Shown here: positions 34,310 to 40,735 of the stretch, in pieces | How the letters are laid out: the number at the start of each line of letters is the position of its first letter | Numbering within the stretch: the stretch's first letter is position 1 | DNA from: a bacterium | GTDB taxonomy: Bacteria; Fidelibacterota; Marinisomatia; Marinisomatales; JAHJCW01 | DNA length: 64,000 nucleotides | Direction of reading: 5' to 3' | Assembly: GCA_028282845.1 (NCBI GenBank) | Contig: JANQGY010000015.1 | Span: forward strand, 155,207-219,206 | Notes under the pieces: generated by a model | The model's input: only the letters and a program-made list of their open reading frames with translations | Database searches by the model: none | What the model was told of the DNA's origin: nothing | Made by a program: the position numbers and the translations under genes

Positions 34310-36178
34310 TTAATTCAGCAGCAACTCTTCCATTTGTGTAACTAAACTATCAAACAATTGCATCGCTTGTTCGATTGGCTCCGGTGACGAAAGATCAACT
34401 CCGGCCTTTTTCAATGTCTCAATTGGGTAGTCACTTCCACCGGCCATTAAAAATTCCATATATTTCTCAATTGCACCTTCTTTACCTTCAAGCACATTTT
34501 TTGCTAAGGCAGTTGAAGCACAAAAACTTGTGGCATATTTATATACATAGAATGTGCGGTAATAATGAGAGATCCTGCCCCAATTCAGTGCATAACCGTC
34601 GTCTATTACAGTTGAAACTCCATACCATTTTTCATCAATATCATGTACAATTTTATTTAAAGACTCCACGGTAATTGGTTCCCCATCTTGAACCATTTGG
34701 TGAGCAGTTTTTTCAAATTCACCAAATATCACCTGAGTAAATACAGTACCTAGGAAATTGTTTATCCATTGGTCAAGCAATACGAGTTTTTCTTTTTCAT
34801 CTTCTGTATTTTTCATTAAGTAGTCTAATAATAGATTCTCGTTGAACGTTGAGGCAACCTCTGCCAAAAATAATGGATATTGAGCAGTAGCATACGGTTG
34901 ATTTTTGTCTGAGTAATGACTGTGCATAGCATGCCCAAGCTCATGGGCAAGAGTGAACATGTGATCCATTGTTCCATTATAATTCATTAACATATAGGGA
35001 TGTGATGTATAAGTTCCCCAAGAATAAGCTCCGGTAGCTTTTCCTTCGGTCTCATAAACGTCAATCCATCTTGAATTCAAAGCCTTTTTGATTGTCTTTA
35101 CATATTCATCACCTAATGGTTTAAAGGCTTCCGGTAAAATAATTTTAGCCTCTTCGTAGGTTACTTTAGTATCAACATCTTCAATGATTGGAACGGCTGT
35201 ATCGTAAAGATGAATCTCATCCAAGTCGAGAACTTTTTTCCGCATTTCCATGTAACGGTTGAGGCTTCCCGAATATTTGTACACAGTCTCAAGTAAATTG
35301 TGGTACACATCAACCGGTATATTGTCATAGCTTAATGATCTTTCCAATGTGCTATTATATTTCCTTGCTCTAGTAATAAATAAATCCTTTTTTAGAGATG
35401 AACCAAGAGTGGCGGCATTTGTATTCTTGATTTTGTCGAACGCCTCAGTCCTTGCTAAAAAGGCTCTTCTTCTTACTTCTGGATCTTCCGATAATAGCAT
35501 TAGATAGTATCTACCACGAGTCAATCGAACTGAGTCGCCTTCTTCATTAATTACCATTGGAAAGACTAAATCAGCTTCGGTCAAAGCTTCAAAAATCTTT
35601 GACGGTGCCCGATAGAGTTCACCTGCCATTGCAAGTAATTGCTCTTCATTTTCAGATAAGGTATGCTCGCGTTGTCGAATCATATTATCAAAATAATGTT
35701 TATATATTTCTAATCCATCTGTCTTAGAAATAAACTTATCGAGTTTTTTCTCAGGTATCTTTTGCAATTCCGGTTCAATATAAGCTATCGCCTCAGTATA
35801 TTTAGTATATAGTGCTGCAATACGATCTGCATATCCCTGAGCTTCAGAAACTCTCGTATCGGAATCCTTATTTAAATCCGCATATACATACAAGTTATCT
35901 ATTGCTATGGAAACTTTTTCATCAAGCTTAAAACATTTTAAAATTTCTGCTCCGGAATTCCCAAGTCTCCCTTTAAAATCTGCAAATTTTGGTAGAGTGT
36001 TCTCAACAAATTGAAAATCCTTTTCCCATTCATTTATGGTTGGATAAATATCTGCTGTATTCCACTTATACTCATCTGCGATATCGCTCCTTTGCGGAAT
36101 ATCAGATTGAGCATATAGTGGTATCGCAATTAATAGCGATAAACTCAATATTAAAATCGTGGTTAGTTTAGACTTCAT
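34310..36178 (-). CDS. pepF: Oligoendopeptidase F (M3B) with N-terminal signal peptide
   Basis: RWIDVYE..GK..GAYSWG, HPYMLMNY, TLAHELGHAMHS, AEVASTFNE, YVYKYATS, LKKAGVDL. Confidence 0.93.
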   Translation of the reverse strand: MKSKLTTILILSLSLLIAIPLYAQSDIPQRSDIADEYKWNTADIYPTINEWEKDFQFVENTLPKFADFKGRLGNSGAEILKCFKLDEKVSIAIDNLYVYADLNKDSDTRVSEAQGYADRIAALYTKYTEAIAYIEPELQKIPEKKLDKFISKTDGLEIYKHYFDNMIRQREHTLSENEEQLLAMAGELYRAPSKIFEALTEADLVFPMVINEEGDSVRLTRGRYYLMLLSEDPEVRRRAFLARTEAFDKIKNTNAATLGSSLKKDLFITRARKYNSTLERSLSYDNIPVDVYHNLLETVYKYSGSLNRYMEMRKKVLDLDEIHLYDTAVPIIEDVDTKVTYEEAKIILPEAFKPLGDEYVKTIKKALNSRWIDVYETEGKATGAYSWGTYTSHPYMLMNYNGTMDHMFTLAHELGHAMHSHYSDKNQPYATAQYPLFLAEVASTFNENLLLDYLMKNTEDEKEKLVLLDQWINNFLGTVFTQVIFGEFEKTAHQMVQDGEPITVESLNKIVHDIDEKWYGVSTVIDDGYALNWGRISHYYRTFYVYKYATSFCASTALAKNVLEGKEGAIEKYMEFLMAGGSDYPIETLKKAGVDLSSPEPIEQAMQLFDSLVTQMEELLLN

Positions 36179-36234: not shown

Positions 36235-36308
36235 AAAAAAAAGCTACCAATTGGAGCTTTTTCCCGAGCGGGAGACGAGGGTTCCCGATTCATCGGGACG
36301 ACAACCAC
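36235..36308. repeat. Duplicated tRNA-Gly 3' end + terminator, T-arm segment replaced by TCCCGAT-TC-ATCGGGA hairpin
   Basis: Matches 36571-36636 at 336-bp offset (CCGAGCGGGAGACGAGGGT and CGACAACCAC identical). Confidence 0.9.
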
Positions 36309-36562
36309 TATTGCTTCCTTGAAGTATTAATTAATCGTTCTAAATAATCTCGGCTCTTTTGCTTTTTAAGTTTTCTTTCAAATCTAATAGCTGCTGATTT
36401 TGATTGAAATTCTTTTACATATTTCACAATCCATGGAATTCCTGATTTTGTTGATTTAGACCAACCATTGTTATGTCGTTCTAATCTTCTGACAATATCT
36501 TTAGTATAACCGATATAATATTTATCAATTTTTTGTGAGTATATGATATATGTAAAATACAT
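36308..36562 (-). CDS. Stand-alone GIY-YIG nuclease (UPF0213/Slx1-like)
   Basis: YFTYII...YYIGYT..RRLERHN...PW...A...E..LK. Confidence 0.92.
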   Translation of the reverse strand: MYFTYIIYSQKIDKYYIGYTKDIVRRLERHNNGWSKSTKSGIPWIVKYVKEFQSKSAAIRFERKLKKQKSRDYLERLINTSRKQ

Positions 36563-36570
36563 GATTATAT

Positions 36571-36598
36571 AAAAAAAGCTACCAATAGGTGGCTTTTC
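36571..36598 (-). terminator. Terminator after tRNA-Gly
   Basis: AAAAGCCACC-TATT-GGTAGCTTTTTTT (one mismatch in stem). Confidence 0.7.
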
Positions 36599-36602
36599 TC
36601 CG

Positions 36603-36674
36603 AGCGGGAGACGAGGGTCGAACTCGCGACAACCACGTTGGCAACGTGGAGCTCTACCACTGAGCTACTCCCGC
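36603..36674 (-). tRNA. tRNA-Gly(GCC)
   Basis: GCGGGAGTAGCTCAGTGGTAGAGC-CCACG-TTGCCAA-CGTGG...GAGTTCGACCCTC-GTCTCCCGCT. Confidence 0.96.
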
Positions 36675-36710
36675 ATATTTCTATTATTTTCTTCTGAAAA
36701 ATAGCGCAGA

Positions 36711-36739
36711 AATCTAAAATGATTTTTATATTTTTTCAA
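36711..36739 (-). promoter_or_regulatory. sigma70 promoter of tRNA-Gly
   Basis: TTGAAA-17 nt-TAGATT. Confidence 0.6.
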
Positions 36740-36763
36740 ATAAAATCGGCTCAATTTAACTGA

Positions 36764-37876
36764 TTAAAACTGCTTTCCCGCCTCAAGTAAAACGCTATCA
36801 ATATAATCCTGCATTTCTCTATCATAATCCATTGCTTGCGGTAATGGCACGATCCGACATTCACTGCGATTTATTGCGGTTGCAATTTTGCCTTCAAGCT
36901 CTATCACCTGTTTCTCATAATTTTCAATTTGTTTTAGTACCGTCGGATTATTGGCGTATTTTTCTTCAAGAGTTTGACCTTCTTCGGTTTCCTTCAATCT
37001 TATTAACTGTCTTGTATAACTTGCTATCCGGTTATTATAAGCAGATACATCTGTTATCAGTTTTGATTCATCAATTATGTTCGCTTTAATTTCAATTAGA
37101 TATTTCCCATTCAGACCAATCGTATAAAAAATTGGTAAATCATCTTTTTGGATATTACCTGTTCGGGTGTTCATCACTGTTCTACTCAAAAATACATAAT
37201 CGGCTTTTTGAAACGAATTAAGTATAACGTCACGATTATTGATCATACCATTCACTAATATAATTAATATGTCAACATCCGTTCTGATTTCTTCAATATA
37301 CTTTTGTCCTTCCGCAAGATAATCTAATTTATAGAGTTCCTTAATGTCTCCGGATAAATTATCGGTAACGCCGATAATACCCATCTTCAAATCATTTTTT
37401 TCTATGACAATATATGGATCAAAGGCCGGTTGGCCGGTTTCAACCAAGTATAGATTTGCCGATACAAACGGGACGGAAGTATTTTGCTCAAGTTTCTTTA
37501 GAAAATCATACCCACCGGCAAGATCATATTCGCCAATGTTCAACGCTGCACAACCGATTTTTTCCATCCCATGCAAAAAAGATTTTGCTTTAAATTGTTC
37601 AGTAGGTACTTTGACAACCGGATATTTGATCTGCTCGAAAAGCGCGTCTCCGGCATCAATAATAATGGGATCAATCCCATTATTCCTCAAAGAATTTATA
37701 TAAGCTGATTTTCTGGACAGACCGCCCAATTTGTTGGATTGTCATCCGCAAAGATTAAATTCAGCCCGTACATTTCCGGTAACGATTAAATCAACGCTCT
37801 TTCCCTTTTCAGCAAAAATGAAAGTGGAAATTATAAATAAGAAATAGAGTCCGATTTTAATTGTTTTAATCTTCAA
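36764..37876 (-). CDS. UshA-like selenoprotein (C-G-U motif; in-frame UGA at 37742-37744)
   Basis: TTG start at 37876 with GGAGG RBS; signal peptide; ...GNVRAEFNLCG-TGA-QSNKLGGLSRK continues in frame into the 5'-nucleotidase-like domain (IIDAGD, PFVSANL); SECIS-like hairpin follows. Confidence 0.88.
37713..37729 (-). promoter_or_regulatory. Putative bacterial SECIS element
   Basis: UUGGGC-GGUCU-GUCCAG hairpin; the apical GGU lies 18 nt after UGA. Confidence 0.75.
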
Positions 37877-37878
37877 TC

Positions 37879-38202
37879 TTATCCTCCACTGAGTTTTGCA
37901 AAATACCCCATTTCCTTCAAAATCTGCAATAATTTTTGACGATCTTTAGTTTGTATAATTATTTCATTATCTTTGATGGATCCTCCAACACCACATCGTT
38001 TCTTCAGCGTTTTTTCTAACATTTTAAGTTCTTCGGTTGTTCCCATAAAATTTTTGACAATACTGACAACTTTATTACCCGGCCGCTTTTCTAACCAAAT
38101 TCGCAAATTTTGATTTTCTGGGGTAATCGATTCTTCATCAACATCATTTTGATCTTCCGGAGTGAAGTCCGGATCGGTTGAAAATATAATTTTGTCCTTC
38201 AT
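37879..38202 (-). CDS. yciH: SUI1/YciH translation initiation factor family
   Basis: LRIWLEKR..KVVSIV, LKKRCGVGGSIKDNEIIIQ, KLSGG. Confidence 0.9.
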   Translation of the reverse strand: MKDKIIFSTDPDFTPEDQNDVDEESITPENQNLRIWLEKRPGNKVVSIVKNFMGTTEELKMLEKTLKKRCGVGGSIKDNEIIIQTKDRQKLLQILKEMGYFAKLSGG

Positions 38203-38204
38203 AA

Positions 38205-39278
38205 TTAAAATAATTCGGTTTGGCCCGATTTAGTATCAACATTAAAATTACTTACTCCGACCCCTAAAAGACGGATTGGTTTATTATTTGACCAAGCGAA
38301 CATAAACAATTCTTCTGCAATATTCGCTATCATTTCCTCTGAATCTATCGCTTCGGCAAAGGATTTTTGTGTTGTATGAGTGTCAAAGTCATAATATCTA
38401 AGTTTGATGAATACGCGCTTAGCCTTTAATTCTTTGTCTCGTAAACGTTTAACAACTTTTTCGCTAAGCTGTTTCAGTATCATCAATAATTCTTCTTTTG
38501 AACTAATGTCTTTTGGAAAAGTGCGCTCATTGCTGATTGATTTTATCTCTCGATATGTTCGCACCGGACGATCATCTTTTCCCTGTGCCCAATTTGCCAT
38601 AGCTAATCCAAATTTTCCAAATCGCGCCTCAAGAATGTTTAATGGAAGTTTGGATAATTCCCGAATTGTTGTAACATTCATAGTTGCCAATTTTTCCGCC
38701 ATTTTAGGGCCGATACCGGAAATTTTCTGCGGACTTAACGGAGCTAAAAATGATCGCTCCTCACCGGGCTTGACCACTGTCAAGCCATTAGGTTTATTTA
38801 AATCAGACGCAATCTTGGCGATCATTTTGTTGGTGGCAACTCCCAGTGAATTTGGTAACCCAATATTCACTGCAATATTATTTTGCAAGGATTTTGCAAT
38901 TTCAACTGCATCTTCCCAATTGCCGATTCTTGAGGAAACATCAATGAATGCCTCATCCACGCTAATTTGTTCGAGCAGATCAGCTTCTTTTTCTACTAAT
39001 TTCATTACGATTACCGAATAGGTTTTGTATGATTTAAAATTAGGAGGAATGATAATTATATCTTTACATAACTTAACTGCGCGACTCATCGGCATAGCGG
39101 AATGAATTCCGAACTTTCGCGCCGGGTACGACGCTGCAGCAACTACACCGCGCTTATCCGGCTGACCACCAACGGCAATTGGTTTACCATTTAATTCAGG
39201 ATTTTTTAGGACTTCAACCGAACAGAAGAAAGCATCCAAATCAAGATGAATAATTGCTCGTGGAATCGATTGTGTCAT
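38205..39278 (-). CDS. dinB: DNA polymerase IV
   Basis: IIHLDLDAFFCSVE, RGVVAAASYPARKFGIHSAM, SVDEAFID, AKIASDLNKPNG, IRLLGVGVS. Confidence 0.95.
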   Translation of the reverse strand: MTQSIPRAIIHLDLDAFFCSVEVLKNPELNGKPIAVGGQPDKRGVVAAASYPARKFGIHSAMPMSRAVKLCKDIIIIPPNFKSYKTYSVIVMKLVEKEADLLEQISVDEAFIDVSSRIGNWEDAVEIAKSLQNNIAVNIGLPNSLGVATNKMIAKIASDLNKPNGLTVVKPGEERSFLAPLSPQKISGIGPKMAEKLATMNVTTIRELSKLPLNILEARFGKFGLAMANWAQGKDDRPVRTYREIKSISNERTFPKDISSKEELLMILKQLSEKVVKRLRDKELKAKRVFIKLRYYDFDTHTTQKSFAEAIDSEEMIANIAEELFMFAWSNNKPIRLLGVGVSNFNVDTKSGQTELF

Positions 39279-39316
39279 TAATTATCAAAAATTGTTTTTA
39301 AGAATTTATCAAAAAT

Positions 39317-39342
39317 GTTATTCCTGCGAAAGCGGGAATCCA
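39317..39342. repeat. REP/dRS3-like palindrome
   Basis: GTTATTCCTGCGAAAGCGGGAATCCA, a variant of ATTCCC-N8-GGGAAT with a GAAA loop. Confidence 0.65.
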
Positions 39343-39454
39343 TATTAATAATAAGAGTAATGAATTCTTTTCAAACCTGTCTAAAGAAGAATCATAAAAG
39401 GATCATTTAAATATTTTTGAATTTATCTGATTCGAGTAATTTCTTACAACTATT

Positions 39455-40735
39455 ATGAAAAAATCCAAATCTTCTCGATTTCTAAATCAATTAAAAGCTC
39501 TTGGTCCGGGATTGCTGTGGGCAGGGGCTGCGATTGGTGTTTCACATTTAGTGCAGTCAACACGTGCCGGAGCAAATTATGGATTTGCTTTGGTAGGGGC
39601 TCTATTGCTTGCCAATTTATTCAAATACCCCGCTTTTGAGTTTGGTCCTCGCTATGCCGCGGCGACCGGTAAAAGTCTGATAAATGGCTATGCTGCTTTA
39701 GGCAAATGGGCTATGATAATATTTCTGTTCATGACATTTGGAACAATGTTCACAATCCAAGCCGCAGTCACAATTGTAACAGCCGGATTGGCTGCATATT
39801 TATTTGGGATTTCTTGGTCGCCATTCATCTGGAGTACTGTTATTCTTGCAATTTGTGTTTTTATTTTGATTATTGGGAAATATCCGTTACTTGATAAGAT
39901 GATCAAATTCATAATTATTCTCTTATCAGTATCAACAATTGTGGCTGTATTTGCCGCACTTGGACATGGTCAATCAATTGATCCGCAATTTGTAAAACCA
40001 CAGATTTGGTCAATATCAGGGATAGCATTTTTAGTAGCCCTCATGGGATGGATGCCATCGGCAATAGATATTTCGGTTTGGCATTCACTATGGACTATAG
40101 AACGGAAGAATGAAACGAAACACAGACCATCGCTTAAAGAAGCATTATTTGATTTTAATCTCGGTTATTTTGGAACAGCCCTACTTGCCTTAGGGTTCTT
40201 AACACTTGGAGCGTTGATTATGTATGGAAGCGGTTCCACATTTTCGCCCACGGGAGCAGGTTTTGCAAGGCAATTAATTGATATGTACGTTAACGCCTTA
40301 GGAGAATGGAGCAGACCACTTATCGGCATCGCCGCCTTCACGACCATGTTTAGTACTACGTTGACAGTAACCGATGCCTTTCCCCGTGTTCTACGCCGAT
40401 CTACAGAAATTATCTTTGAAAGTAAATTGAAGAATTACAACACCAATTATCTTTATTGGCTTGCCATGTTGGTTGTACTTAGCGGTTGTCTCATTATTAT
40501 CGGTTATTTATTAAGCGAAATGACAATCTTGGTAGATTTGGCTACGACTCTATCTTTTTTGACTGCACCTATTTTAGCTTACATCAATTATAGGGTGGTA
40601 ACCGGCAACACAATGCCAATAGATTGTCAACCGCAAAAATGGCTAAGGATCCTTAGTTGGATTGGAATAATATTTTTGAGTGGATTTAGCATCATCTTCC
40701 TTGTTTGGCGTTTTGGACAAGGAATCTTATACTAA
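39455..40735 (+). CDS. NRAMP-like (APC fold) transporter
   Basis: LGPGLLWAGAAIGVSHLVQSTRAGA, ALMGWMPSAID, TTMFSTTLTV; about 11 TM. Confidence 0.85.
   Translation: MKKSKSSRFLNQLKALGPGLLWAGAAIGVSHLVQSTRAGANYGFALVGALLLANLFKYPAFEFGPRYAAATGKSLINGYAALGKWAMIIFLFMTFGTMFTIQAAVTIVTAGLAAYLFGISWSPFIWSTVILAICVFILIIGKYPLLDKMIKFIIILLSVSTIVAVFAALGHGQSIDPQFVKPQIWSISGIAFLVALMGWMPSAIDISVWHSLWTIERKNETKHRPSLKEALFDFNLGYFGTALLALGFLTLGALIMYGSGSTFSPTGAGFARQLIDMYVNALGEWSRPLIGIAAFTTMFSTTLTVTDAFPRVLRRSTEIIFESKLKNYNTNYLYWLAMLVVLSGCLIIIGYLLSEMTILVDLATTLSFLTAPILAYINYRVVTGNTMPIDCQPQKWLRILSWIGIIFLSGFSIIFLVWRFGQGILY

Follow-up and report, generated by a model that had tools for sequence, protein, structure and literature searches.

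A single TGA codon at positions 37742-37744 of the window raises the question of whether it ends a short frame or is read as selenocysteine (Sec) within a longer gene. The window is a stretch of 64,000 nucleotides (nt) from contig JANQGY010000015.1 (assembly GCA_028282845.1) of a bacterium of the order Marinisomatales (Fidelibacterota, here called Marinimicrobia). The gene in question lies at 36764..37876 on the minus strand, as do all window features given below. The table-11 open reading frame (ORF) call covers only a 321-codon piece, which starts at a TTG at 37729. The frame itself continues upstream through the TGA, as the original prediction had noted, and forms a complete coding sequence of 370 codons from a TTG start codon at 37874-37876 to a TAA stop at 36764-36766, with the TGA as codon 45 and as the sole in-frame TGA. 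The TTG aligns with the ATG start of the same-genus orthologues and is preceded, at a distance of 6 nt, by a GGAGG Shine-Dalgarno-like sequence (37883..37887), read directly. The read-through product opens with MKIKTIKIGLYFLFIISTFIFA, followed by EK; residues 1-22 (MKIK..FIFA; 37811..37876) are a putative signal peptide, judged by eye, and the AlphaFold2 (AF2) model places an N-terminal helix at residues 3-19. Around the Sec position the product reads VTGNVRAEFNLCG-U-QSNKLGGLSRK (NLCG-U), and the Cys43-Gly44-Sec45 motif is encoded at 37742..37750. The start codon, the ribosome-binding site and the residues around the Sec are those first proposed for this locus, and so, by eye only, is the signal peptide.

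As a whole, the locus is best explained, with considerable confidence, as the gene of a genuine exported selenoprotein with a redox C-G-U centre. The parts of this explanation differ in strength. That UGA codon 45 is read as Sec, with selenium incorporation as predicted from sequence comparison, is held to be nearly certain. A redox role of the C-G-U centre is somewhat favoured, and a sulfur substrate is proposed only tentatively.

The TGA is conserved across the order. A six-frame search of 41 related genomes detected the gene in 39, the window's own genome included; 30 loci were fetched, with the motif located in each, and 23 orthologues were aligned at the protein level. At the column where the original prediction had expected Cys or TGA in homologues, 29 of the 30 loci carry TGA and the thirtieth, L052, carries TGT (Cys). 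The genus of L052 has genomes of about 1 Mb, and the locus reads D-C-G-C and is one uninterrupted ORF. None of the 23 aligned orthologues departs from C43 and G44, and position 45 is Sec in 22 of them and Cys in one, at protein identities to the window protein of 30-58%; the products of the 29 further loci are 369-406 amino acids (aa) long. The motif is L-C-G-U in all 8 loci of the window's genus and P-C-G-U in the other 21 TGA-bearing loci of the order. The codons before the TGA vary synonymously while the residues stay fixed (AAT CTT TGC GGA versus AAC CTA TGT GGA), which shows that this frame is translated upstream of the TGA. In a phylum-wide sample, 95 of 121 genomes gave a match at E<=1e-20. 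Exactly one in-frame TGA is held by 83 of the 97 phylum-wide rows and none by the remaining 14, the column of the TGA being established only for the 30 fetched loci, which lessens the weight of the wider count. Two family copies each are present in the relatives G016 and G100; both copies of G016 have the TGA, and in G100 one copy has it and the other has none.

If the TGA were a true stop, created by a nonsense mutation, by decay into a pseudogene or by an assembly error, the locus would give a 44-residue peptide and/or a 321-residue cytoplasmic protein from the TTG at 37729. Public gene callers annotate it in this way, and most of the database homologues listed are 319-321 aa long, starting just after the TGA. 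A profile search of 1.84 billion representatives returned 505 proteins at E<=1e-30, of which the best 150 were examined; 82 of these 150 are N-terminally truncated, and many start right after the Sec column. Such truncations are expected from a caller that stops at TGA. The recurrence of the codon at one column across the order, the single TGA in most phylum-wide matches, the coding conservation upstream of it and the uninterrupted Cys orthologue all contradict the true-stop explanation, as does the hairpin described next, within whose arm the TTG at 37729 lies. The true-stop explanation is regarded as extremely improbable.

Downstream of the TGA lies a putative selenocysteine insertion sequence (SECIS) hairpin at 37713..37729, with a 5' arm UUGGGC (37724-37729), a loop GGUCU (37719-37723) and a 3' arm GUCCAG (37713-37718). 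The hairpin begins 12 nt and the loop 18 nt after the UGA. The sequence GGCGGTCTG, which corresponds to the codons GGC-GGT-CTG and spans three wobble positions, is invariant in all 29 TGA loci (ungapped alignment). The stem around the GGUCU loop comprises 5-6 bp, and 92.6% of the alignment cells are paired; shifting the 3' arm by 1-3 columns lowers this share to 21.6-51.9%. Pair 30-42, formed by two third-codon positions, occurs in six pair types (GC, AU, UA, CG, GU and UG). The covariation score was reached in none of 500 shuffles, and RNAalifold independently predicts the same helix. The Cys orthologue L052 has GGAGGGCTT at the place of the hairpin and forms no hairpin, as expected because the constraint is lifted in the Cys form. 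Two observations speak against the hairpin. Of the six stem pairs, one alone shows double-sided changes and two are constant throughout; and folding 37685-37750 as a single sequence yields a minimum free energy structure other than the SECIS hairpin, which does no better than shuffled sequences (z -0.67). The support for the hairpin is comparative, drawn from the aligned sequences, and not from single-sequence folding. An Rfam scan of 36400-38300 matched the neighbouring tRNA-Gly and one sRNA at chance level, and no SECIS family.

The apical G and U of a SECIS have a role in SelB binding, and the GGUCU hairpin would be the expected docking site for SelB-GTP-Sec-tRNA(Sec). A likeness to the fdhF element of Escherichia coli had been proposed for this hairpin, and the K-12 record (NC_000913.3) bears it out: in both, the UGA is followed after 18 nt by GGUCUG in a hairpin apex. 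The two elements differ in stem sequence and loop size, the window element having a stem of 5-6 bp and a loop of 5 nt. The fdhF-like SECIS suggests that direct expression of the gene in E. coli could be feasible.

The machinery for Sec insertion is present in this genome, as the original prediction had implied. selA (459 bits) and selB (349 bits) are adjacent on contig 18, selD (399 bits) lies outside the window on contig 13 at 260348-261274 (L009), and a tRNA-Sec was detected at 62.4 bits, with the anticodon TCA according to ARAGORN. The selD gene has one in-frame TGA itself, and the selenophosphate synthetase is therefore probably also a selenoprotein. Among relatives, SelA is full length (436-470 bits) in all five TGA-form genomes tested. 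In five genomes of the genus with genomes of about 1 Mb, 96-99% complete, SelA was not found (no match, or partial matches of 18-22 bits); the orthologues of that genus have no in-frame stop, and Cys is confirmed for one of them, L052. The presence of the machinery thereby tracks the TGA versus the no-stop form in ten of ten relatives.

The stop would equally disappear if the organism used genetic code table 4 or 25, which assign TGA to an amino acid. Among the best 150 representatives of the profile search, 68 cover the motif: 48 have C-x-C, 13 have C-G-W and 7 have no Cys pair. The C-G-W sequences, which include the database entries P0004, P0007, P0081 and P0082, are what such a code would give; these four calls apparently come from a code-4 model applied to short contigs. 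TGA terminates 221 of the 1048 open frames of >=300 codons in this genome. It is also the terminator of 16 of the 28 orthologous genes for which the stop was read, and is therefore a normal stop in these organisms. These stops and the dedicated tRNA-Sec, selA, selB and selD contradict an alternative code, which is given almost no weight.

With Sec as the residue at position 45, the nature of the protein can be considered. Its best family match is NCBIfam NF041198 ('UshA_like_PCGU'), with E 1.2e-50. Its score of 172.6 bits, or 163.5 bits in the genome scan, falls short of the cut-off of 275. The alignment covers profile positions 13-339 of 519 and includes the C-G-U region; of the P-C-G-U motif, C-G-U is present, with Leu in place of Pro. 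Six Marinimicrobia short forms tested against the profile all scored 166-233 bits, below the cut-off. P0181 (358 bits) and P0195 (567 bits) exceed it; these proteins are 534-542 aa long, carry four CxxCH motifs each, and their matches extend through the C-terminal positions of the profile. The window protein has neither a CxxCH motif nor the tetrahaem region of NF041198 (profile positions about 399-518), and its score lies under the cut-off because the members of the model carry a fused tetrahaem cytochrome. The second family, NF049981 (UshA-like (seleno)protein family 2, CxxU), was matched at only 14.9 bits (E 0.013), below its cut-off of 140; the motif of the window protein is CxU. A Pfam search with the window protein gave a sub-threshold FlxA match (E 0.02) and nothing else; this match is rejected as noise from the helical region.

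The fold is that of a 5'-nucleotidase. Sequence matches in the PDB are 5'-nucleotidases and 2',3'-cyclic phosphodiesterases over residues 49-175, with IIIDAGDALF aligned on ..DnGD.. (the GD motif) and NIGEYD on NIGNHEF. The AF2 model, built with 23 orthologues, has a mean predicted local distance difference test (pLDDT) score of 89.3 and a predicted TM-score of 0.87. Foldseek groups the model with the E. coli 5'-nucleotidase, its top match, and with human CD73 (probability 1.00 at E values of about 1e-17). Residues 26-276 (37049..37801) form a degenerate calcineurin-like metallophosphoesterase domain, the N-domain fold of 5'-nucleotidases, in which the dimetal ligands are largely replaced. In place of the seven dimetal ligands (DxH, GD, GNH, H, GHxH/Q) the protein has N-V-R, D-A-G-D, G-E-Y-D and S-R-T, and at most two of the seven positions are kept. 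In the 23 orthologues the ligand positions are N35, a variable residue 37, D/E/N77, variable residues 116/117 and S-R/G-x at 231-233, while C43, G44, position 45, G51, G52, L53, R55, D74, G76 and N113 are, among others, invariant. Three of the seven representatives without a Cys pair keep the metal ligands: at the positions occupied by N,R / D,D / E,Y in the window protein they have D,H / D,D / N,H. Because these representatives with intact ligands have no Cys motif, the Cys/Sec pair looks like an alternative to the metal site. The 5'-nucleotidase C-terminal domain (PF02872) gave no Pfam match, and the protein ends at residue 370. The metallophosphoesterase domain is followed by a helical hairpin (residues 278-333, 36878..37045), whose helices at 278-294 and 311-333 are predicted with pLDDT >90 and which occurs in all 23 aligned orthologues. 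The NF041198 matches of five of six orthologues tested reach profile positions 375-404, which suggests that the hairpin is a feature of the family and not a peculiarity of this gene. The degenerate UshA scaffold of the original prediction is borne out by sequence and predicted fold, in that the DAGD is kept among lost ligands (PDB and family-profile alignments agree) and the substrate-binding domain is absent; the long coiled-coil insert once described is this confidently predicted helical hairpin.

With the nucleotide-binding C-domain gone and at most two of the seven dimetal ligands left, the window protein is, on its sequence, not a phosphoesterase. It could be supposed that it is still a nucleotidase or phosphoesterase in which Cys and Sec replace the dimetal centre; the 5'-nucleotidase fold fits this, and some homologues are called 2',3'-cyclic-nucleotide 2'-phosphodiesterase by JGI. 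Against it, apart from the missing ligands and C-domain, stands the sequence around Sec45, which shows no Cys-X5-Arg phosphatase loop. Retained phosphoesterase activity is judged very unlikely.

Under the favoured explanation, a redox selenoprotein, Cys-Gly-Sec would lie in a flexible loop after strand beta1; in true enzymes this loop bears the DxH metal motif. There it would serve as a new active centre, alternating between a selenenylsulfide and a reduced selenol/thiol state, and the protein would be a periplasmic redox enzyme. C-x-C motifs are redox-active in other proteins, as in Erv2 with its C-G-C shuttle. A periplasmic Cys/Sec redox role is suggested by the company that the gene keeps in relatives, namely tetrahaem-cytochrome fusions and an operon with rhodanese and MauE/DoxX genes. 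A membrane-anchored rhodanese gene (PF00581) directly follows the selenoprotein gene in 25 of the 30 loci, and a gene for a MauE/DoxX membrane protein (PF07291/PF07681) then follows in 24 of 30, often with overlapping stop and start codons. The nearest NCBIfam model of the neighbouring rhodanese is NF041203 ('rhodanese-related (seleno)protein'), matched below its cut-off. In loci L025-L051 of relatives the rhodanese has two Cys in its active-site loop (Y-C-x4-C-G-x-S), and a conserved E/D-C-G-C-G-L motif occurs in the MauE/DoxX protein, so that each of the three operon products has Cys or Sec residues paired at a short distance. The distant Cys-form homologues P0087 and P0089 have four CxxCH motifs and match PF13435 (cytochrome c554-like).

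The electron or sulfur partners would accordingly depend on the lineage. In other phyla the partner would be the fused tetrahaem cytochrome c554-like domain of NF041198 members. In most Marinimicrobia it would be the translationally coupled, membrane-anchored rhodanese together with the MauE/DoxX protein and its own C-G-C motif. Proteins of the DoxX/DoxD type have links to thiosulfate:quinone oxidoreduction and to thiol homeostasis, and a part in marine sulfur cycling has been ascribed to Marinimicrobia. The most likely substrates would be sulfane-sulfur, polysulfide or thiosulfate-type compounds. A literature search on rhodanese and MauE/DoxX pairs, covering titles and the beginnings of abstracts, returned nothing on such a module.

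Several points weigh against the redox explanation. The gene persists here without the rhodanese-MauE pair: in this genome, which is 92.7% complete, tblastn with the neighbour rhodanese and MauE gave nothing at E<=1e-3 and MauE PF07291 had no match, and the pair was likewise not found in two congeners (G005 and G006). The argument from redox partners is weakest for this genome. In addition, residues 42-47 of the C-G-U loop are the only internal segment of the model with pLDDT <50, and the position of the loop over the former metal site is inferred from fold topology. Finally, metal binding would be just as compatible with a C-x-U pair. Thiophilic metals are bound by soft Cys/Sec pairs, and the C-G-U could be a metal site (e.g. 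for Cu, Hg, Zn or Ni) in a periplasmic metallochaperone or sensor, with the recoding unchanged. The scaffold is that of a former metalloenzyme, with Asn (for Asp41), the invariant Asp74 and the mostly acidic residue 77 near the old site, and the MauE/DoxX neighbour weakly matches NF050144 ('HvfX family Cu-binding RiPP maturation protein'), scoring 23.2 bits where the cut-off lies at 80. A metal-binding function was also offered in the original prediction. The tetrahaem cytochrome fusion and the rhodanese pairing point instead to electron or sulfur transfer, and no metal transporter or regulator was found among the conserved neighbours in the 30 loci. A metal site is considered an unlikely alternative, yet far less so than the explanations set aside above.

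If the protein is a redox enzyme, its partner in this genome may be a periplasmic multihaem cytochrome. The C-terminal part of NF041198 matches a separate tetrahaem cytochrome of 192 aa on contig 13, and this protein is a candidate partner of the selenoprotein. The region in question (150000-163000 of contig 13, L055, outside the window) is a same-orientation cluster of multihaem cytochrome genes. It includes a MerR regulator, multihaem cytochromes of 415, 279, 138 and 192 aa, and a 654-aa NapC/NirT-like cytochrome. One further multihaem cytochrome, of 833 aa, is a fusion with a cytochrome b561-like membrane domain, and a 396-aa protein had no match in Pfam. The cluster also holds an unrelated tandem rhodanese of 308 aa, which accounts for the only PF00581 matches in this genome. 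From its gene content, L055 looks like an extracytoplasmic electron conduit with a sulfurtransferase inside.

A further step, which is speculative, is to regard the C-G-Sec loop as the active site of a class of periplasmic selenoenzymes that act on sulfane sulfur, polysulfide, thiosulfate or selenium species and are wired to the respiratory chain. The wiring, a possibility of the same doubtful standing, would be through the fused tetrahaem cytochrome or through the rhodanese and the MauE/DoxX protein as a quinone-linked membrane protein. If this is true, the gene would tie selenium supply to sulfur cycling by Marinimicrobia, an abundant ocean phylum, because at least 83 of the 121 sampled genomes carry a match with one in-frame TGA. 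It would also follow that the enzyme works with another partner in the lineage of the window, in which the selenoprotein has been kept and the rhodanese-MauE pair lost.

The immediate surroundings of the gene are as follows. Upstream lies a gene of the SUI1/YciH family (37879..38202; PF01253, E 1.9e-16), and the TTG start of the selenoprotein gene comes 2 nt after its TAA stop. This gene is probably co-transcribed with the selenoprotein gene, and in 20 of the 30 loci a SUI1-family gene is the upstream neighbour according to neighbour clustering. Further upstream, an ORF of 357 aa (38205-39278) resembles, by eye, a Y-family DNA polymerase of the DinB type; the corresponding clustered ORF is present in 7 of the 30 loci. 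Immediately downstream, a tRNA-Gly(GCC) gene (36602..36674) sits where most relatives have the rhodanese and MauE/DoxX genes. It is followed by an ORF of 84 aa (36308-36562), whose N-terminus resembles a GIY-YIG nuclease motif by eye, and by an ORF of 622 aa (34310-36178) for an exported M3-type peptidase-like protein with a HELGH zinc-peptidase motif, also judged by eye. Together these three occupy the usual rhodanese-MauE/DoxX place of relatives, and in the congener locus L030 the same peptidase-like ORF follows the selenoprotein gene. A scan of 36300-39600 for promoters and terminators was uninformative: 12 promoter-like sites turned up where 13.2 would be expected, and 4 terminator-like sites where 2.4 would be.

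The practical result is a correction of annotation: the gene is real and is mis-called. Most public calls of the family are cut to about 320 aa at the TGA, and some read the TGA as Trp (C-G-W). NF041198 misses the whole Marinimicrobia short form because the model expects a fused cytochrome. The gene, detected in 95 of the 121 genomes sampled from the phylum, therefore usually goes under the label of a truncated hypothetical protein. It belongs to one of the more abundant marine selenoprotein families, with 76 Sec-containing Global Ocean Sampling (GOS) sequences in PMC2398784. The operon and fusion partners (rhodanese, MauE/DoxX protein and tetrahaem cytochrome) give a concrete functional hypothesis. 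The outcome is a sound annotation correction with a usable functional lead, not a new kind of system.

Among characterized proteins, the window protein is comparable to E. coli UshA and other 5'-nucleotidases (PDB 1ush, 1oie and 1hp1; human CD73). It shares their N-terminal metallophosphoesterase fold (TM-score of about 0.6, normalized to the query), sequence similarity over residues 97-175, and periplasmic export, which is predicted here. It differs from them in that it has neither the dimetal ligands nor the C-terminal nucleotide-binding domain and adds the C-G-U loop and the helical hairpin. SoxB is a dimanganese hydrolase. This thiosulfohydrolase (TIGR04486) belongs to the same 5'-nucleotidase superfamily, as its only sulfur-cycle member, and is a recurrent secondary match, with 24.9 bits for the window protein and up to 72.6 bits for the fused P0181. 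These scores are far under the cut-off of 550 bits, and the window protein, unlike SoxB, has lost the metal ligands.

The closest known system is the UshA-like selenoprotein family itself, which is not new and has been catalogued from ocean metagenomes since 2008. Zhang and Gladyshev (2008, PLoS Genet 4:e1000095; PMC2398784) described 'COG0737, UshA-like', with the motif CxU, from 76 Sec and 92 Cys sequences of the GOS data; they note that few other major families lack a classical redox motif as this one does. The window protein agrees with this description in its C-G-U motif and its similarity to UshA and 5'-nucleotidases. In the accessible text of two reviews (PMC9312934, from 2022, and PMC13188914, from 2026) the family is listed as NF041198/COG0737, CxU, next to the second family NF049981 (CxxU); the name TsoB was met only in the review of 2026. 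The available text of PMC2398784 gives no function, operon or structure for the family, and that of the two reviews gives no function. No experimental study of UshA-like/COG0737 selenoproteins was found, in a search that was thin on subscription journals and is not proof of absence; the literature on Marinimicrobia and selenoproteins, by titles and the beginnings of abstracts, held nothing on the family. The statement that such CxU selenoproteins had been predicted computationally and lacked functional characterization agrees with these sources as far as they were available.

The likeness to the metagenomic family is close. The '#COG0737_UshA' block in the supplement of PMC2398784 contains reads such as ..TNVRGQLDPCGUKKNPLGGLSRK..ILDAGD.., and by eye its reads are nearly residue-for-residue those of the window's order, with the block NV(R/H)xQLDPCGUKxNPLGGL shared with orthologues of the order. 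The sequences are likewise marine and have a lipoprotein-type or signal N-terminus. The differences concern the window's own lineage. In the available supplement text 'PCGU' occurs 74 times and 'LCGU' not once, whereas the window's genus has L-C-G-U; and the window protein has, by eye, a signal of the signal-peptidase-I type with no lipobox, in the place where orthologues from other families of the order carry a lipoprotein-type lipobox. Four traits are specific to this lineage: it has lost the rhodanese-MauE/DoxX partners, its signal is of the signal-peptidase-I type where others have a lipobox, the protein is a short form without a cytochrome domain, and L-C-G-U replaces P-C-G-U.

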